Below, in pieces: positions 561-54,294 of a DNA stretch of 64,000 nt (its first letter is position 1; every line of letters starts with the position of its first letter). The stretch lies in the NCBI GenBank assembly GCA_019636245.1, contig JAHBXX010000001.1, positions 73,859-137,858 of the forward strand. Direction: 5' to 3'. Origin of the DNA: Planctomycetota bacterium. GTDB lineage: Bacteria > Planctomycetota > UBA1135 > UBA2386. A program made the position numbers and the translations under genes. The notes beneath the pieces are model-generated. The model had not been told where the DNA came from. It did not search any database and saw only the letters and a list, made by a program, of their open reading frames with translations.

Positions 561-2926
561 CGGCGCCCGCGGGGGGGGGCTCGCTGCTCGACCTGCCGCT
601 GCGCCGGCCGCTCGCGACCCTGGTCGCGATCGTGCTGGTGACCGCGGCGGCGCTGCTGCTGTGGCCGGGCGTGCGCTTCCAGCCGGACGTCGCGCGCCTG
701 CTGCCGGCCGACCATCCCTACCTGCGCGTCGCCGAACTGCTCGACGAACGCGCGCGCCCGGCGCGCACCCTGTGGCTCCTGCTGCGCGGCCCCGACCTGC
801 CGGCGCGCGTGCCGGCGCTCGCCGCGGCGCTCGCCGCCTCGCCCTGGGTCGCCGCCGTCGAGACCACGCGCGACCAGCTGTTCGGCCCGTGGCTGGCCCG
901 GGGCGCCGCGGCGCCGCTGTGGTCGCTGCCGCCGCCGCAGCGCGAGGAGCTGACGGCGGCGCTGCAGCCGGCGGCGCGGGCAGCGGCGATCGAGGCGCTG
1001 CGCCTCGACCTCGCCGACGATCCGCTGGCCGGCGGCGAACTCGCGGTGCGCGACCCGCTCGGCCTGCGCTGGCTGCTGCAGGCCGCCGACCCGGCCGCGG
1101 CGCTCGGCCTCGACCAGGATTCCGACCTGGTGTCGTTCGAGCGCGGCGGCGAGGTGCTGCTGCGGCTCACCGGCACGACCGACGCCTACGACGCCGACGC
1201 CGCCCTGGCCCTGATGGGGCACGTCGAGACCGTGCTGCACGGCGTCGACGCCGCCGTGTTCGGCGGCTACGCGGTGGCCGCGGCCGACCAGCGCCGCATC
1301 CGCGCCGACTTCGAGCGCGCCAGTGGCTGGGCGCTGGTGGCGATCCTCGTCTACCTGTGCTGGACGATGCGCGGCGTGCGCCTGCCGCTGCTCGTGCAGC
1401 TGCCGGCGCTGCTGTCGATCACCTGGGCGATCCCGTTCGGCAGCGCGTGGTTCGGGCCGCTGCCGACGGTGGCGGTGGCGGCGGTGGCGGTGCTGTGCGG
1501 CCTTGGCGTCGACTTCGCGATCCACTATGCCGCGCGCTACCGCGCCGAGTGCCTCCTGCACGGCCACGCCGAGGCGGTGCGCCGCGTGCAGCGTACGACG
1601 GTGCCCGAACTGGCGATCGACATGGCGACCACGGCCGTCACCTTCCTCGCCGTCGGCAGCGGCGAACTCAGCGGCCTGCGCGCGTTCGGCCTGCTGCTGG
1701 CGCTCGGGCTGGTCGGCAGCCTCGTCGTCACCGTCACCGCGCTGCCGGTGCTGCTCGCCGCCGCCGGCCGCCGGCGGGATCCGGAGCGCAGCTGGCTCGC
1801 CGCCTTGGCCGACCGCTGGCTCGCGCAGCGCGCGGCGCGGCCGCTGGCGTGGTCGGTGATCGCCCTGGCCGCCGTGCTCGCCGTCGCCACGGCATGGCGC
1901 GGCGTGCCGCTGTCGGCCGAGCCGGAGGCCCTGCGCCCGGCGGGCGATCCGGTCGCCGCCGCGCGCGCGGCGATCGAGCGGCGGCTCGGCTTCCAGAGCG
2001 TGCCGGCGGTGCTGCTGCTGCCGGCGGCCGACGAGCCTTCGGCCGCGCGCGACGGCCTGCTGGCGCTGCAGGCGGCCGGCGTGGTCCGGTTCTGGTCCGG
2101 TCTCGAGGCGGTGGAGACCGAGGGCGCGCGGCAGGCGGTGACGGCGTGCCGCGCGCGCCTCGGCGCGTTCGTCGAACCGACCCTGCAGCAGTTCGCGGCG
2201 GCCGGCCTCGAGCCGGGGCCGTTCCGCCCGGCGCTGCAGGCGCTGCAGGCGCGGCTCGACGCCGACCCGCCGGCCGCGGCGCCGCGCTGGCTCGACCTCG
2301 ACGGCGAACGCTGGCGCGTGGTGCAGGCCTGGCCGGTCGAGCGCCTCGACGCCGACCGGCTGCCGGCGTTCGCCGGCGAGGTGCAGGCGAGGCTCGGTCC
2401 GCGCGTCCAGGTGCACGCCGGCGCGACCGTGGCCGCGGCGCTGGCGACCGTGCTGCAGCGCGACCTGGTGCGCGCGGTGCTGCTGGCGGTCGGGCTGGCG
2501 TTCGGCATGGTGCTGCTGTGGCTGCGCTCGTGGCGGCAGGGCCTCCTGGCGCTGCTGCCGAGCGCCATCGGCCTCGCGCTGACGCTCGCGTGGCTGGCCG
2601 CCGCCGGCATCGAGCTGTCGCTGGTCAGCTTCGTCGCCGTGCCGTTCGTGCTGGGCATCGGCGTCGACGAGGGCGTGCACACCGTCGGTCACTTCCGCCA
2701 CGGCGGGCGCACCACCGGCGCCACCGGCACCGGCGTGGTGCGCACCAGCCTCGGCACCGTGCTCGGCTTCGGCGCGCTGCTGTGGGCCGAGAGTCCGGGG
2801 CTGCAGGCGCTCGGCGGCATCGTCGCCATCGGCTCGCTGCTCTGCATGCTGTCCTGCCTGTTCGTGCTGGCGCCGCTGCTGGCGCCGCGCGCCGCTCACC
2901 AGAGCCGGGCCCAGCAGAACCAGTGA
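557..2926 (+). CDS. MMPL/RND-superfamily exporter (predicted lipid exporter)
   Basis: GTG 557 overlaps the ligase stop (GTGA). The protein has two bundles of hydrophobic helices and MMPL-type motifs GLGVDFAIHYAARY and GIGVDEGVH. The upstream part of track ORF 326..2926 is shadow sequence. Confidence 0.85.
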   Translation: MTAPAGGGSLLDLPLRRPLATLVAIVLVTAAALLLWPGVRFQPDVARLLPADHPYLRVAELLDERARPARTLWLLLRGPDLPARVPALAAALAASPWVAAVETTRDQLFGPWLARGAAAPLWSLPPPQREELTAALQPAARAAAIEALRLDLADDPLAGGELAVRDPLGLRWLLQAADPAAALGLDQDSDLVSFERGGEVLLRLTGTTDAYDADAALALMGHVETVLHGVDAAVFGGYAVAAADQRRIRADFERASGWALVAILVYLCWTMRGVRLPLLVQLPALLSITWAIPFGSAWFGPLPTVAVAAVAVLCGLGVDFAIHYAARYRAECLLHGHAEAVRRVQRTTVPELAIDMATTAVTFLAVGSGELSGLRAFGLLLALGLVGSLVVTVTALPVLLAAAGRRRDPERSWLAALADRWLAQRAARPLAWSVIALAAVLAVATAWRGVPLSAEPEALRPAGDPVAAARAAIERRLGFQSVPAVLLLPAADEPSAARDGLLALQAAGVVRFWSGLEAVETEGARQAVTACRARLGAFVEPTLQQFAAAGLEPGPFRPALQALQARLDADPPAAAPRWLDLDGERWRVVQAWPVERLDADRLPAFAGEVQARLGPRVQVHAGATVAAALATVLQRDLVRAVLLAVGLAFGMVLLWLRSWRQGLLALLPSAIGLALTLAWLAAAGIELSLVSFVAVPFVLGIGVDEGVHTVGHFRHGGRTTGATGTGVVRTSLGTVLGFGALLWAESPGLQALGGIVAIGSLLCMLSCLFVLAPLLAPRAAHQSRAQQNQ
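571..579 (+). repeat. G9 homopolymer inside codons 5-8 of the MMPL exporter gene
   Basis: The sequence reads gcg ggg ggg ggc: nine consecutive G. It is the longest homopolymer run I found by eye in the window. Confidence 0.95.
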
Positions 2927-49048: not shown

Positions 49049-50620
49049 TCAGTCCATCAGGTGCGGGAAGTCGTCGAACATCGAGTGCAACTCGCCGCGC
49101 CCGGCGCGGTCGGCGTGGGTCTCCATGTCGAGCACGTCGCGGGTGCGCTGGTAGAGGTCGTCGGCCTCCTGCGCGCTGTCGGCGATGCAGATCACGCCCA
49201 GCTTCCCGAATTGCGACAGCGCGCCGATCATGTGGAACAGCACGCCGGTCTCGGTCTGCGGGCTCCAGTGCAGGCCGTGGCCGATCACGATCTCGAGGAA
49301 GTCCTGCGGCAAGAGGCCGCGGTACGACGGCGACACCAGCGCGTCGGTGGCGAAGTAGTACTTGCGCACCCCGGTGCGCGAGCGGTAGTCGCCGGCGCCG
49401 CCGATGGCGCCGCCGGTGAGGAAGTCGAGCGCCGTGAACGGGAACGTCGTGCCGCCCATGCGCAGGTTGATCTCGATCGCGGCGCAGCGCCAGTCGGCGC
49501 CCGTCCTGCGGTAGACGAGGAAGTCGATCGCGAAGCGGCCGAGCACGCCGCGGGCGCGCAGCACCTCGCCGACGTAGTGGGCGCGCTCCGTGATCAGGCT
49601 CCGGTAGTCCGCGTTGGCCGGGAAGCGGCAGCCGAGGTAGACCTGCCCGGAGTCGCCGCCGAGCGCCTGGTCGTGCGTCGAGATGATCTGCAGCTGGCCG
49701 GTCGGCGTGATGCGCAGCTGCACGCTCGGGGAGTGCACCTCGTCGGCCTCGAGGAACTCCTCGACGATGCCGCCCATCTGCGCGTACTTGGCGAAGAACT
49801 CGCTCCGGGAATGGTCCGGAGCCGAGAACTTCATCCGGTCGAGCGCTCCGCGGATGGCGGCGTGCCGTGCGGGCTCGTCGCCGGGCATCGGACTCGGGTA
49901 GGTGAACAGGGCGTTGCCCTCGCCCGAGAAGCCGTCGTTGATCTTGACCACCGCGCGCCGCAGCTGCGGCTTGTCGCGCTTGAGGCGGTCGAGGGCTGCC
50001 ACCGCGGCGGCCTCGTCCGGCAGGTGCTCGAAGCCGTCGGGCAGCTCGATGCCGGCCTCGCGGAAAGTCTCGCGCGAGCCCGACTTGCTGCCCAGGTGCA
50101 GCAGGGCCGGGTCGGCGCCGTTCAGCGGGATGCCGAGCTGCACCGCGAGCGTGCGTTCGAGCGGCGACGTCGTGAAGCAGCTCATGTAGGCGCGGTCGCG
50201 GTCGCCGATCCACTGCCGGATGCGTTCGATCACGCGCGGCCGCTCGAGGATCTTCTCGGTCAATGCGCGCGGGCTGGCGTCCTGCACGCAGAGCATCGTC
50301 AGGCGGCGCTTGGCGTGCAGCGGCGGGATGCCGACCAGGAGCTGCAGGTAGTAGTCGACGATGTCCTCTTCGACCGGCTGGCTGGTGACGTACATGATGC
50401 GCACGCCCGGTCGCCGCAGCCGCATCAGCATGAACATCAGGCGCTCCTCGTAGAACGGCACGCCCTTGACCTTCTGCAGCTCCTCCTGGTCGAAGCTCAG
50501 GGAGGGCACGATCAGGCAGGAGTGCGGTTGGCGCGGCTGCTCGTGCACCTCCGACCAGATGGCGGGCAGCCTGGCCTGCAGCCGCGCGAAGGCCTCGATT
50601 TCGTCGGTGGCTGGAGTCAC
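49049..50620 (-). CDS. ATP-grasp-type ligase, PGM1-like peptide ligase family (tentative)
   Basis: GTG 50620 is the only start downstream of the shadow part of track ORF 49049..53404. The pattern CLIVPSLSFDQEELQKVKGVPFYEERLMF...VTSQPVEEDIVDYYLQLL...KSGSRETFREAGIELPDG...AVVKINDGFSGEGN... matches pre-ATP-grasp plus ATP-grasp ligases as I recall them. Confidence 0.6.
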   Translation of the reverse strand: MTPATDEIEAFARLQARLPAIWSEVHEQPRQPHSCLIVPSLSFDQEELQKVKGVPFYEERLMFMLMRLRRPGVRIMYVTSQPVEEDIVDYYLQLLVGIPPLHAKRRLTMLCVQDASPRALTEKILERPRVIERIRQWIGDRDRAYMSCFTTSPLERTLAVQLGIPLNGADPALLHLGSKSGSRETFREAGIELPDGFEHLPDEAAAVAALDRLKRDKPQLRRAVVKINDGFSGEGNALFTYPSPMPGDEPARHAAIRGALDRMKFSAPDHSRSEFFAKYAQMGGIVEEFLEADEVHSPSVQLRITPTGQLQIISTHDQALGGDSGQVYLGCRFPANADYRSLITERAHYVGEVLRARGVLGRFAIDFLVYRRTGADWRCAAIEINLRMGGTTFPFTALDFLTGGAIGGAGDYRSRTGVRKYYFATDALVSPSYRGLLPQDFLEIVIGHGLHWSPQTETGVLFHMIGALSQFGKLGVICIADSAQEADDLYQRTRDVLDMETHADRAGRGELHSMFDDFPHLMD

Positions 50621-50922
50621 TGGGCGTGCAGCGTTGCGCGGCGGCGGTAGGGGACAAGGGGCGACCCGGGAATCGCCGGCGTGCGGTGGGCCGATGGCGG
50701 CGTTCGCCCCACCCGCTGTCGGCGGCCGCCACCGGCACCGACGTCCAGCGGCGATGTCCGGGGCGCGGATCCGGCGGTCGGCGGCAGCGCTTTCGCCCTG
50801 TTTCGGCCGGGATGCGCAGTGGGGGGCTCCTCCCTTCGGGGCTGGGTCCGTAGCATCGGTGACTTGGCGTGTTGGGGCGCGTCCCCTCGGCGCGGCTCGA
50901 TCGTCAGCACCCCTTTCTGGAA

Positions 50923-50934
50923 GAGGTTTCCATG
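50923..50934 (+). promoter_or_regulatory. Shine-Dalgarno (GAGG) plus ATG 50932: probable natural translation start of the galactose-oxidase-like gene
   Basis: The sequence is gaGAGGtttccATG, with 5-nt spacing. The ATG is in frame +1 relative to the long downstream ORF because of the repeat length. Confidence 0.6.
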
Positions 50935-50941
50935 CGCACGC

Positions 50942-50985
50942 GGAAGGAAGGAAGGAAGGAAGGAAGGAAGGAAGGAAGGAAGGAA
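50942..50985 (+). repeat. Perfect tetranucleotide microsatellite (GGAA)11
   Basis: Counted directly: 11 uninterrupted GGAA units, followed by an imperfect GGGA. It lies 7 nt after the ATG codon at 50932-50934 and 22 nt before ATG 51008. Confidence 0.97.
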
Positions 50986-51007
50986 GGGAGGCGCGCTCGT
51001 CGCGCTG

Positions 51008-52690
51008 ATGCTGTCCGCCCTCGGTGGGGAATCGATGCCGGCGCAGAGCTGGAGCAACCCGTTCCAACACAATCAGCCGCATGCCGGCACCGGCGGCTTC
51101 ACGAGCCCCTATTCGCCGTGGAGCCTGCTGCCGGGGTCGAACGCTCCGGCGCCGAGCAGCATCTTCACGGCCCCCGCCACGGTGCCGGCGCAGGTGGCAT
51201 GGTCGGGTGGCGGCGTGTTCGTGAAGGGCTGGCCGCAGCCGGAGCCGCTGCACAACGGACGTAGCTTCAACGCCGTGCACATGGCGCTGATTCCGAAGGG
51301 ACCCTACCGCGGCCACGTGCTGGTCTGGAACCACGTCGAGTGCTACGCGCTCGTGAATCCTCCCGGCGTTCCACCGCTCTCCACGCCGCAGCCCGGCGAG
51401 ATCGTGACGCAGGGATACCAAGCCTATGCGATCGTCGATCCGGCCGATGCCCCACTGCACGGCATCCGCTACCGCAACTTCCTGGTGCCGACGGGCGACG
51501 AGCTGCGCCTGCCGGAGTCCTGGCCGGTGATCGCGAAGAACATGTTCTGCGCCGGCCACGCGTGGTCGCCATACGGCGACCTGATCGTGCCGGGTGCGAC
51601 TGAGTTCGAACTGGTGATCCCGCCGCCACCGGCCGCACCCTCCGTCGCCTACGGGGGCGGCAGCCTGGTCTACGTGTTCAATCCTCGCCGCACGTGCCAG
51701 TGGCCGGGCACGCCGACCGAGTACTACCCGTCGACGGTCGCCGCGGGCAGCCCGAGCGCCGACGACTACCGTGGCCTGTGGGCGCGCGCCGCCGACCTCG
51801 CCGTGCCGCGCTGGTACCCGACCGCGACGCTGACGCACCGGCTCCTGCGGCAGGCGATCCATCCGCAGACCGGGCCGATTCCCGGCACGGCGAACCGGGA
51901 GCGCATGGTATTCCTCGGCGGCAGCGTGACGGTGCCGGCGCTGCCCGGCGACCACGCGAACTTCAGCTACGAGGCCTACGTGATCCTCGGCGAGTGCGAC
52001 AACCAGCCCCCGAACCGCAGCAAACTGGTGCCGGACTACGCCAGCGGTCCGGCGCCGTTCGTACCGACGTCCCTGCAGCAGGACCGGATCTGGAACGGGC
52101 CAGGCATCAGCCCGGTGCTCGGCTCGCTGCCGCAGGATTGGCTCTACGAGTACCCGCGCACGTTCCTGCTCTCGTCCGGCGAGCTGTTCTTCAGCGGTTA
52201 CGCGCCGCGTGGGGCATGGCTGGAGCATGATGGCGCGCCGGGGCTGTGGGCGCAGGCCGCGGCCCAGCCTGGGGCACCCGGCACCTACAGCAGCAACTGG
52301 CCGGAGATCCGGCACGATGGCAGCGCCGTGCTCTTCCCCAACCTCGGCGGCAATGCCGACGTCGTGCTGCGCCTGGGGGGCGCGAAGGGCCACGGCGGCG
52401 CGGCCACCGACACGATGGAGTCGATCGCCGCTGGCAGCACTGCCAGCACGTGGACTGCCGCGCCGTCGATGCCATCCGAGGACGTTTCGATCGATGGTGG
52501 CCGGTTGTTCGCCAACACGGTGATCCTGCCGACCGGCGGGCTGTTGATCCTGGGCGGGCTGTGGCAGGACGGCGGCGGCGCCGAGCAACCGCTCTACCAC
52601 CCGCTGCTGTTCGAGGGCGGCCAGTGGCACAAGATGCGGGTGTTCCTCGGCGGGGGGCCGTCCGAGCCGATCTGGGTGGTGCTGCGATGA
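51008..52690 (+). CDS. Galactose oxidase/glyoxal oxidase-like kelch-propeller protein (body of a putatively phase-variable gene; first in-frame ATG shown)
   Basis: Family motifs NMFCAGHAW (Cys of the Tyr-Cys cofactor context), PRWYPTATL, PLYHPLL. The frame stays open upstream through the repeat. The ATG at 51008 sits inside what would be the signal-peptide h-region (ALVALMLSALGGESMPA|QSW). Confidence 0.75.
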   Translation: MLSALGGESMPAQSWSNPFQHNQPHAGTGGFTSPYSPWSLLPGSNAPAPSSIFTAPATVPAQVAWSGGGVFVKGWPQPEPLHNGRSFNAVHMALIPKGPYRGHVLVWNHVECYALVNPPGVPPLSTPQPGEIVTQGYQAYAIVDPADAPLHGIRYRNFLVPTGDELRLPESWPVIAKNMFCAGHAWSPYGDLIVPGATEFELVIPPPPAAPSVAYGGGSLVYVFNPRRTCQWPGTPTEYYPSTVAAGSPSADDYRGLWARAADLAVPRWYPTATLTHRLLRQAIHPQTGPIPGTANRERMVFLGGSVTVPALPGDHANFSYEAYVILGECDNQPPNRSKLVPDYASGPAPFVPTSLQQDRIWNGPGISPVLGSLPQDWLYEYPRTFLLSSGELFFSGYAPRGAWLEHDGAPGLWAQAAAQPGAPGTYSSNWPEIRHDGSAVLFPNLGGNADVVLRLGGAKGHGGAATDTMESIAAGSTASTWTAAPSMPSEDVSIDGGRLFANTVILPTGGLLILGGLWQDGGGAEQPLYHPLLFEGGQWHKMRVFLGGGPSEPIWVVLR

Positions 52691-54294
52691 TCCGCCTGCG
52701 CGCAATCCCGGTCGCTCTCCTGGTCGCGGTGGGAGCGCTGCCGGCGCAGCAGTTGCTCTGGCAGGCGCCCGCAGTAGCCGCGCCACCGCTGCTCGAAACC
52801 AACTGGATGAAGGGCTTCGCCGACTACGACGGCGATGGCTGCCTCGACTTCGTGCGGGCGATCTACGACCCCCTGACACCCTACCTCGACATCGTCTCGG
52901 GCCGCGACGGCTCGCTGCTGCTGCGGCAGTGGCATTGGCTCGGCTTCTTCGGCGACGTGGCGCACGCCGGCGACTTCGACGGCGATGGCGTGCCGGACAT
53001 GATCGCGGTGCGCGGCCAGGGCACGGCGAGCGCGCAGATGCTGGAGGTCTACTCGCCGAGCCGCAACGTGGTGTTCTGGCAGTACACAGGCCAGGGCCTG
53101 TCGTTCGGCAGCGAGGTGCTCGGCAACCTCGACACCGACGGCGACGGCCTGCCCGACGTGGTGACGAAGGTGTTCGAGGCCGCGCTGGCGGAGGTCTACG
53201 TGTTCGACCACTACGGTGCGCTGCGCTACACGATCCCGTGCCTGGCGCAGGGTCGGCGGCCGGCGAGCCTCGCCGACATGGGCGACATGGATGGCGACGG
53301 CTGCGCCGACATCCTGATCGGCTGCCTCGAGCCCACGGGGAGGGGCCTGCAGTGGCTGGTGTCCGGCCGGACCGGCGCGACGATCCGCGAGACCTACGGT
53401 CCATTGCCGGGCGCGCCGCTGGCCCTGAACGTCTGCAACCTCGGCGACATCGACGGCGACGGCGTCAACGACTATGCGGCGTTCCCGTGGTACTCGTCGA
53501 CCGGCCTCCTGGCGGCGGCATACTCGGGGGCCTCGGGCGCGGTGATCCGCACCTGGGCCGATGGTCCGAACTCGGTGGTCGCCGGCGAGGACTTCGACCA
53601 GGACGGCGTGCCCGACCTGGTGACGGGTGCGGACTGGTACCTGTGGGGCAACCTGTATGGCCGCACCCACTGCTGGAGCGGCCGCGACGGCAGCGAGCTG
53701 TGGCGGGTGGAGGCGGTGCTGTATCCCCAGGGCACCGGCTTCCACGGCACCAGCGGCTGGATGATGTACTCGGCCAGCCTCGGCGTGCAGCCGGGCAATC
53801 CGTACCCCGTGGTTGCCTGGCTGAACACGGAGGAGATGGCCAGCAACTACTCGGGTCTGATCCGCGTCTACGGCGGCGCCCGCGCCGGCCAGGGCCCGGT
53901 GACCGGCACCGCCTGCACGAGTGCGGGCCCGCTGCCGCGGATCGGCGTGCGCAAGCTCGGTCAAGGAGCCGCGAACACCGGCTTCCGTACCACGGTGGCG
54001 AAGACGCACGCCGACGCGCTGGCGGCGTTGCACTTCGCGTTCGCGCCGCTGGCGGCGCCGGTCGACCTGTCCCCGTACGGCTTCCCCGGCTGCACCGCCT
54101 ACGTCGATCCGGCCGCCGCCTTCCTGCGCCTCACCGGCACGGCGGGCATCGACCGCGGCTACGCGGCGGTCGACCTGCCGCACCCGCTGTCGGCCGCCGC
54201 CGCCGGCACCGACGTCCAGGCGCAGTGGTTCGTGCTGGAGCCGGTCACCGGCGCCTACGCGGCGACGCAACGGCACACGATCCGGCTGCCGTGA
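52687..54294 (+). CDS. Secreted FG-GAP (integrin-alpha-like) repeat propeller protein with Cys-containing C-terminal module
   Basis: ATGA overlap with the upstream stop. The signal peptide ends ...AVGALPA|QQLL. Repeated DxDGDG loops (DYDGDGCLD, DFDGDGVPD, DTDGDGLPD, DMDGDGCAD, DIDGDGVND, DFDQDGVPD). Confidence 0.88.
   Translation: MIRLRAIPVALLVAVGALPAQQLLWQAPAVAAPPLLETNWMKGFADYDGDGCLDFVRAIYDPLTPYLDIVSGRDGSLLLRQWHWLGFFGDVAHAGDFDGDGVPDMIAVRGQGTASAQMLEVYSPSRNVVFWQYTGQGLSFGSEVLGNLDTDGDGLPDVVTKVFEAALAEVYVFDHYGALRYTIPCLAQGRRPASLADMGDMDGDGCADILIGCLEPTGRGLQWLVSGRTGATIRETYGPLPGAPLALNVCNLGDIDGDGVNDYAAFPWYSSTGLLAAAYSGASGAVIRTWADGPNSVVAGEDFDQDGVPDLVTGADWYLWGNLYGRTHCWSGRDGSELWRVEAVLYPQGTGFHGTSGWMMYSASLGVQPGNPYPVVAWLNTEEMASNYSGLIRVYGGARAGQGPVTGTACTSAGPLPRIGVRKLGQGAANTGFRTTVAKTHADALAALHFAFAPLAAPVDLSPYGFPGCTAYVDPAAAFLRLTGTAGIDRGYAAVDLPHPLSAAAAGTDVQAQWFVLEPVTGAYAATQRHTIRLP

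Follow-up and report, generated by a model that had tools for sequence, protein, structure and literature searches.

A non-triplet repeat before the signal peptide as a probable on/off switch of a secreted galactose-oxidase-like gene family in Planctomycetota

Phase variation through simple sequence repeats (SSRs) is mostly seen as a device of pathogens and commensals adapted to a host. Haemophilus influenzae has tetranucleotide contingency loci such as lic1 (CAAT), hgp (CCAA) and mod (AGTC/AGCC), and the opa genes of Neisseria, several paralogues of which switch independently, carry a (CTCTT)n coding repeat in the signal-peptide region, with one length class in three in frame. Here, we examine a stretch of 64,000 nucleotides (the window; positions 73,859 to 137,858 of contig JAHBXX010000001.1, assembly GCA_019636245.1) from an uncultured environmental planctomycete, with a GC content of 74.3%, in which a perfect (GGAA)11 tract lies between the start codon and the signal peptide of a gene for a secreted galactose-oxidase-like protein. 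PMC2651432 names tetranucleotide SSRs as the chief mediators of phase variation in H. influenzae, while PMC11868660 lists Opa phase variation and states, citing De Bolle et al. (2000), that the length of an SSR tract sets its switching rate. In the literature searched, neither Planctomycetes nor galactose-oxidase-like genes were reported to undergo SSR phase variation.

The elements set out in a preliminary description of the locus, namely a Shine–Dalgarno (SD)-like GAGG, a 5 nt spacer, an ATG at 50932 and the repeat, are all present at the 5' end of the gene (Table 1). The tract begins 10 nt after this ATG, directly before the core of the signal peptide. At 44 nt it is the longest perfect microsatellite of the window, the runner-up in a microsatellite scan measuring 18 nt, and (GGAA)5 with up to two mismatches matched this single site in the window and nothing in 100 dinucleotide-preserving shuffles. 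The gene body is in frame +1 relative to the ATG, such that the 11-unit allele is out of frame and alleles of 1, 4, 7, 10 or 13 units would be in frame; this agrees with the earlier frame arithmetic, and the recomputed 10-unit product reads MRTRKEGRKEGRKEGRKGGALVALMLSALGGESMPA followed by QSWSNPF, with the signal peptide restored. One figure needs correction: the shadow open reading frame (ORF) that starts at ATG 50932 had been given 131 codons, a count that applies from GTG 50869; from the ATG there are 110. The first ATG in the frame of the gene body, at 51008, is the start annotated by NCBI for KF830_00490 and falls inside the hydrophobic segment, as had been noted. None of the other candidate in-frame starts in the window (GTG 50681, GTG 50819 and TTG 50864) is accompanied by an SD-like sequence. 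The codons that make up the tract are rare in the window genome (AGG, three of 107 Arg codons; GGA, eight of 193 Gly codons; GAA, eight of 71 Glu codons), which argues that the tract is maintained at the level of the DNA and not for the peptide that it encodes.

We propose that (GGAA)n is a hypermutable element that sets the reading frame of the gene body. Placed between the true start, a few codons upstream, and the hydrophobic signal-peptide core, which follows closely, such an SSR would gain or lose units of 4 nt through slipped-strand mispairing at replication; with each change the gene body would come into frame with the ATG or leave it, so that translation is turned on or off. One length class in three would be ON; the window allele, with 11 units, would be OFF, and alleles of 10 or 13 units ON. 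The adjoining gene for an FG-GAP repeat protein would probably be co-switched, whether because translational coupling is lost or because of polarity. It is likely, in our judgement, that (GGAA)n acts in this way as a slipped-strand ON/OFF phase-variation switch of a cassette comprising the galactose-oxidase-like and FG-GAP genes, and that the switch is an old property of the family kept by selection. DNA slippage as the cause of the length changes, their reversibility and their rate, along with a cell-surface or extracellular function for the product of the cassette, are what we infer from the comparisons that follow.

Table 1. Features of the window and repeat tracts at the corresponding site of related loci
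Locus	Feature	Position	Strand	Remarks
Window	ATP-grasp ligase gene resembling BesA (L-propargylglycine--L-glutamate ligase)	49049-50620	-	Divergently transcribed, upstream of the oxidase-like gene
Window	Leader motif GCGTC-N5-GGCGC	50879-50893	+	About 40-55 nt upstream of the start codon
Window	SD-like GAGG	50923-50926	+	5 nt before ATG 50932; GGAG/GAGG then TTCC(C)ATG conserved in orthologues
Window	Native start codon (ATG) of the secreted copper-oxidase-like gene	50932-50934	+	Out of frame with the gene body in the window allele
Window	Out-of-frame product of the 11-unit allele, 110 codons (MRTRKEGRKEGRKEGRKEGRRARRADAV...)	50932-51264	+	Stop codon 51262-51264
Window	Perfect (GGAA)11, 11 units	50942-50985	+	Followed by a degenerate GGGA unit to 50989; preceded by ATG 50932, then CGCACGC
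Window	Signal peptide h- and c-regions in the gene-body frame (GGALVALMLSALGGESMPA)	50987-51043	+	Predicted cleavage before Q 51044-51046; AQ/SWSxPF(N/Q)HN
Window	KF830_00490, 560 aa, Glyoxal_oxid_N/DUF1929-family (galactose-oxidase-like) body, internally deleted	51008-52690	+	Annotated from ATG 51008
Window	Two in-frame deletion junctions in KF830_00490	52634-52660	+	Alignment A1, tblastn with P0002, P0004 versus galactose oxidase structures, sequence
Window	FG-GAP repeat protein gene, 535 aa, own signal peptide	52687-54294	+	ATG overlaps the upstream stop codon (ATGA, 52687-52690)
L001	GGAA tract, 3 units			
L002	GGAA tract, 5 units			
L004	GGAA tract, 9 units			
L005	GGAA tract, 7 units			
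L006	GGAA tract, 6 units			
L007	GGAA tract, 5 units			
L008	GGAA tract, 6 units			
L013	GGAA tract, 7 units			
L023	GGAA tract, 8 units			
L025	GGAA tract, 12 units			
L027	GGAA tract, 4 units			
L032	GGAA tract, 3 units			
L037	GGAA tract, 6 units			
L046	GGAA tract, 7 units			
L009	(CT)21	2773-2814		
L018	(CT)12	569-592		
L011	(CT)15	2838-2867		
L048	(CT)21	1419-1460		

All of the homologues found come from Planctomycetota metagenome-assembled genomes (MAGs) or metagenomes, with amino-acid identities to the window protein of 31–62%. The first sign that the repeat is family-wide came from EGRK motifs at the N-termini of homologues and from the many gene calls that start inside the signal peptide. 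Orthologous DNA was compared as species-level loci from these sources, each represented by consensus contigs. A perfect GGAA tract stands 10–24 nt after the conserved SD-ATG in 15 species-level loci, including the window and one more distant family member (n = 6), and (GGAA)≥3 occurs once per locus, at the tract, in the loci scanned for it. In all orthologues, a hydrophobic core, (A/S)LAAL..., and the motif AQ/SWSxPFNHN follow directly 3' of the tract in the frame of the gene body. A paralogous subfamily (∼34% identity) has (CT)n at the same site, encoding (LS)n of the signal peptide. In locus L036, a degenerate GGAA remnant (GGAAGAAGGAAGG) is followed at this site by an octanucleotide repeat, (AGCAGGCA)6, the two together occupying 325–399, an arrangement that on the face of its sequence looks like motif turnover. 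None of the three units GGAA, CT and AGCAGGCA is a multiple of three, and their occurrence at one site indicates that it is non-triplet repetitiveness that is conserved there and not the GGAA sequence; replacement of the motif at a fixed site further argues against any role that depends on the sequence, for example as an SD pad, as a site of protein binding or as a peptide motif. Two orthologues without a perfect repeat (P0030 and P0064) have the N-terminus MSxRRxxAASxAA.., which identifies the frame of the SD-ATG as the native one. The preliminary description had held that a single fixed repeat length in related genomes, or the absence of the repeat from otherwise conserved orthologues, would speak against a switch. 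Instead, the orthologues span 3–12 units and have the repeat in the same place after the conserved SD-ATG, and the paralogues have other non-triplet repeats.

Further repeats were seen at the edges of the family. In loci L015 (1240–1283) and L016 (74–117), a second SD-ATG is followed by (CT)9, in the form GGAGG..ATG CGT GCG TTG GCA AAA GGC GTA A(CT)9. This site is ∼950 nt upstream of the oxidase-like gene, just before a short ORF (L015, 1320–2003) that contains the RWYPT and SYHG motifs of the oxidase-like family; the arrangement may represent another repeat-gated gene fragment. The N-termini of three distant members, P0073, P0081 and P0082 (..RRGEERRRA.., ..RGEERRGEER.. and ..FSLSLSLSLC..., respectively), suggest further purine-rich, possibly pentanucleotide, repeats and CT repeats.

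Early in the coding region, after the start codon and ahead of the essential part of the protein, 18 species-level loci in all have a perfect non-triplet repeat, and its length differs between lineages in ways that change the frame (for GGAA, n = 3–12, with all three frame states represented). Four of these loci are ON, eight are at -1 and six at +1. These states are indistinguishable from random thirds, unlike those of an ordinary coding repeat, for which every locus would be in frame, or of a programmed frameshift, which would have one direction. Adding or removing one unit restores, by computation, a complete signal peptide and AQ/SWSxPFNHN in every OFF locus. In the ON alleles, the reading frame opened at the conserved SD-ATG continues across the tract and into the signal peptide; in L001, L032, L037 and L013, the peptide initiated at this ATG (M-L-F-T-Q/R or similar) is in frame. 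Alternative in-frame starts, which were listed for all OFF loci, were rejected as a general explanation, since five of these loci (L004, L005, L006, L023 and L011) have no ATG, GTG or TTG in the frame of the gene body upstream of the tract. In OFF loci, the first in-frame start 3' of the tract falls inside or beyond the signal peptide, being past the cleavage site in L002 (GTG 3259), L011 (GTG 2908) and L036 (GTG 494), and L007 has no in-frame start within 150 nt after the tract. L009 and L018 do have a TTG in the frame of the gene body, 4 nt after the ATG. A start independent of the repeat, which had been raised earlier as a way in which the protein might be made, is therefore not general: neither the five OFF loci without an upstream start nor the window, whose candidates lack an SD, offers a way to the full product that bypasses the repeat. 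Together with the lack of suitable starts, the conserved signal-peptide core indicates that the tract is translated and that its length decides whether the protein is made. To judge from the loci compared, the arrangement is an old, selected trait of this gene family in uncultured high-GC Planctomycetota.

The mechanism that we propose is already known; what is new is the phylum, the gene family, the depth to which the site is conserved and the exchange of motifs while the position stays fixed. As in opa, a non-triplet repeat lies in the region encoding the leader peptide of a secreted or surface protein, the (CT)n paralogues encode a hydrophobic part of that leader as (LS)n, and two to three cassettes occur per planctomycete MAG. 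MAG_AAO_AS.17 has three cassettes with independent tracts (GGAA7, GGAA6 and CT21) and 'new MAG-23' has two (GGAA5 and CT15), resembling the multi-locus repertoires of known phase-variable families. Unlike in opa, the host is an uncultured environmental planctomycete of ∼74% GC and not a host-restricted pathogen, the motifs are GGAA, CT and AGCAGGCA, and the product is an enzyme-like β-propeller with an FG-GAP partner and not an adhesin porin; the site is also conserved over a much deeper divergence, down to ∼31–35% amino-acid identity. With the H. influenzae loci the planctomycete genes share a perfect tetranucleotide tract a few codons after the start, a frame that sets the ON or OFF state and a range from about three to more than 12 units between lineages. 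They differ in phylum, GC content, ecology and gene family, in the replacement of one motif by another at the same site, and in being known from sequence alone.

Selection on the gene body could be assessed in the OFF loci. In ten of the 14, a tblastn search with the full-length homologue P0004 recovered the gene body at full length in a single frame (630–700 codons). The ratio of nonsynonymous to synonymous substitution rates (dN/dS; Nei–Gojobori) is 0.21 for L011 versus L048 (dS 0.46, 644 codons) and 0.31 for L005 versus L023, both members of each pair being OFF. Such low values indicate that purifying selection has kept the protein in lineages whose consensus allele is OFF, which fits reversible switching and not pseudogenes. 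A difference in length between close relatives was seen in the CT subfamily: over 4152 nt, L009 (from a MAG) and L018 (from a JGI metagenome unrelated to it) show 11 mismatches and 99.3% identity, and the tract, (CT)21 versus (CT)12, is the single indel between them.

Selection is evident at the level of the family and not for the window copy. Homologues are 620–730 residues in length and combine Glyoxal_oxid_N (PF07250) with a galactose-oxidase E-set domain (PF09118). The full-length P0004, aligned with galactose oxidase (PDB codes 1gof, 1t2x and 6xlt), retains the ligand positions Tyr495-His496 and His581, and full-length members have an FC(A/S)GH motif at the position of Cys228. The ORF of the window is a relative of these Glyoxal_oxid_N and DUF1929 proteins, as the preliminary description implied in calling it galactose-oxidase-like; as it stands, it is internally deleted when set against every full-length homologue, and a Pfam search with it (E < 0.01) gave no match, neither PF07250 nor PF09118 being recognized. 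The first deletion, after ...HKM (between 52636 and 52637), removes ∼21 codons including the YHS motif with the Tyr-His copper ligands (..NYHSTAVLLPDG); the second, after RVFLGGG (between 52657 and 52658), removes ∼120 codons comprising the E-set domain and the third His ligand (..THHSDMHQRY..). Only the last ten codons, PSEPIWVVLR, and the ATGA overlap remain after it. Tyr495-His496 and His581 (galactose oxidase numbering) are consequently absent. A tblastn search of the window for the missing C-terminal domain found no trace of it, and its relocation within the window was rejected. The deletions are either real decay or an assembly artefact; unless they are the latter, the gene, to go by its sequence, cannot encode an active radical copper oxidase. 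With the copper ligands and the E-set domain lost, the window switch would govern a crippled gene and possibly also the FG-GAP partner. The earlier suggestion of a contingency switch in an OFF configuration is thus supported for the family, and the window allele is indeed OFF, with the reservation that the gene behind it is damaged in addition.

Several observations weigh against a selected switch. The window copy lacks ∼140 codons, among them those for three of the four copper ligands, and further lesions are present in L008 (∼3461), L013 (∼3510), L025 (∼2900) and L016 (∼2460–2524), which may mean that some copies are decaying or that errors were made in sequencing or assembly. Of the GGAA tracts, the two longest (11 units in the window and 12 in L025) are both in damaged genes. 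ON alleles make up only four of the 18. Differences in GGAA length were seen between species, and the contigs compared within species were of the same clone (≥99.9% identity); although from different samples, these always agreed in n (L002/L003, L023/L024, L025/L026, L027–L029 and L032–L035), and a strain at least 90% identical in protein to L007 (P0044) likewise has n = 5. A search for within-species GGAA polymorphism with P0002, P0006, P0007 and P0008, whose gene calls begin 3' of the tract, and with cluster members found none among same-clone contigs. The equality of n in same-clone contigs indicates that GGAA switching is not fast enough for the consensus alleles of related samples to differ. 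In the CT subfamily, all four unit numbers (21, 12, 15 and 21) are divisible by three, and both related pairs (21 versus 12 and 21 versus 15) differ by multiples of three units and so keep the same OFF frame. This could hint at selection for that frame; the chance of such agreement is ∼1/9. Two sets of contigs do not inform on length: the nine that match P0023, all with n = 6, were retrieved by a search conditioned on the N-terminus, and L030 and L031 end 27–40 nt after the tract. The contigs L001, L030 and L031 end within 17–40 nt of the tract, and these ends may, as a weak indication, reflect breaks in the assembly graph.

Among readings other than slipped-strand switching, translational recoding fares best, although we regard it as unlikely. 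Slippage of the ribosome (or of RNA polymerase) on the repeat would allow out-of-frame alleles to be expressed, the repeat serving as an attenuator or rheostat; after a shift of one unit (4 nt on GGAA or 2 nt on CU) the P-site tRNA can pair again without a mismatch, and rare codons could pause the ribosome. It would suit a family whose genes are under purifying selection despite a consensus allele that is out of frame in 14 of the 18 loci, and in which both related CT pairs hold the same OFF frame. The rarity of AGG, GGA and GAA also speaks for it, as does the fact that the tract yields the same (GRKE)n or (LS)n peptide in any frame, so that slippage within it is silent at the protein level. 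The shift needed, however, is +1 in six loci, -1 in eight and none in four, giving no fixed programmed direction; a classical slippery heptamer is lacking; the leader and tract together do not fold more stably than shuffled sequence (z = +1.2) and have no Rfam match at E ≤ 1; and tract length varies freely, as a process at the DNA level would produce. Programmed ribosomal frameshift sites are exemplified by prfB (+1) and dnaX (-1). The present genes resemble these in having the start and the gene body in different frames and SD-like and rare-codon content at the shift region, but the direction of the shift, and the need for one, vary among orthologues, and there is no conserved slippery site or stimulator; the hallmark of programmed frameshifting, a conserved direction at a conserved slippery site, is therefore missing from the orthologues. 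We know of no established bacterial precedent for efficient frameshifting on GGAA or CU repeats or for transcriptional slippage on non-homopolymeric repeats. A rheostat layered on phase variation, with out-of-frame alleles expressed at a low, length-dependent level, has a similarly small probability; if true, it would explain both the purifying selection on genes whose consensus is OFF and the retention of one OFF frame by the CT alleles.

Slightly less probable still for the family is that the out-of-frame copies are pseudogenes and the repeat a neutral microsatellite expanding in dying genes. The deletions of the window copy, with its Tyr-His and His ligands and E-set domain lost, the extra frameshifts in L008, L013, L025 and L016, and the presence of the longest tracts in damaged genes are all what decay would leave, and for the copy in the window alone it is a serious possibility, falling somewhat short of an even chance and much likelier than for the family. 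Decay is contradicted, at the level of the family, by the intact gene body of ten of the 14 OFF loci and the dN/dS of 0.21–0.31 between OFF alleles. A perfect tract is also found at the same codon-level position in orthologues of 31–62% identity, ON alleles included; a neutral microsatellite would not persist in this way, nor give way to another non-triplet repeat at the same site.

That the tract is untranslated, with the real start downstream (for example ATG 51008) and the repeat acting as a 5'-untranslated-region (5'-UTR) or promoter-proximal element (an SD-like array, H-DNA formed by a homopurine–homopyrimidine mirror repeat or a regulator-binding site), is very improbable: the seemingly unconstrained frame states, the starts placed after the tract by NCBI and other gene callers, the SD-like GGAAGG and the homopurine–homopyrimidine nature of both GGAA and CT tracts would agree with it, but the hydrophobic core and AQ/SWS cleavage motif begin right after the tract in the frame of the gene body, the first in-frame start after the tract is within or beyond them (L002, L011 and L036; none within 150 nt in L007), in ON alleles the SD-ATG, tract and signal peptide form one continuous reading frame, (AGCAGGCA)6 is not homopurine and does not resemble an SD, and the window tract ends 19 nt before ATG 51008, too far for SD function.

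The gene for the FG-GAP β-propeller protein overlaps the oxidase-like gene by ATGA, as previously described. Wherever a locus extends far enough to tell, a homologue of it lies 3' of the oxidase-like gene, which makes the pair a conserved cassette. The two genes share 4 nt in the window and in most of the gene tables; the overlap is larger in L023 and L027–L029, and there is none in L025 and L026. It is on the 4 nt overlap that the probable co-switching of the FG-GAP gene, suggested earlier too, is based. In sequence, full-length oxidase-like members resemble galactose oxidase (PDB code 1gof) and Streptomyces GlxA (PDB code 4unm) in combining PF07250 with PF09118 and in being secreted. They are set apart from radical copper oxidases by the distance of this similarity (E ∼ 1e-16, confined to the C-terminal half), with a score against the NCBIfam GlxA model of 19.7 bits versus a cut-off of 800, and the window copy additionally by its want of the Tyr-His and His ligands and the E-set domain. 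The partner of GlxA in Streptomyces is a glycan synthase of the cslA type, as opposed to the FG-GAP protein here. To our knowledge, no phase variation is known in the galactose oxidase/GlxA family. On the other side of the locus, the divergent ATP-grasp protein matches NCBIfam BesA with E = 1e-49, far under the equivalog cut-off, and contains PGM1_C and IQCH-like ATP-grasp Pfam domains.

Conservation extends upstream of the start codon. In an alignment of 15 orthologous leaders (A2), most contain GCGTCnTnTCGGCGC, the spacing being GCGTC-N5-6-GGCGC, and the consensus continues as ...CCCTTC.GGAG(A/G)G.TTCC(C)ATGCTGTTCACGC-(GGAA)n. The L032 copy of the element GCGTC-N5-6-GGCGC is perfectly palindromic, GCGTCACATCGACGC; the element may serve as an operator or promoter element, or it may belong to the 5' UTR. 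A scan of 50550–51300 of the window for sigma-70 promoters and intrinsic terminators found none. An RNA element in the leader or tract, with CCCTTC/TTCC of the 5' UTR pairing to the repeat, was considered and dropped, given the lack of an Rfam match and the z score of +1.2. Both the GGAA and the CT tracts, which have opposite strand polarity, are homopurine–homopyrimidine mirror repeats that could form H-DNA; homopurine–homopyrimidine stretches are reported in PMC4060949 to be over-represented in the planctomycete Isosphaera.

For annotation, the arrangement means that gene callers assign wrong starts to these genes or start them inside the signal peptide, and that OFF alleles can pass for pseudogenes. 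If slipped-strand switching is correct, free-living, uncultured, high-GC Planctomycetota would possess a deeply conserved, multi-paralogue family of repeat-gated cassettes for secreted proteins. The replacement of the motif while its position is kept points to long-term selection for local mutability in environmental bacteria, which may amount to bet-hedging over an extracellular or surface function.

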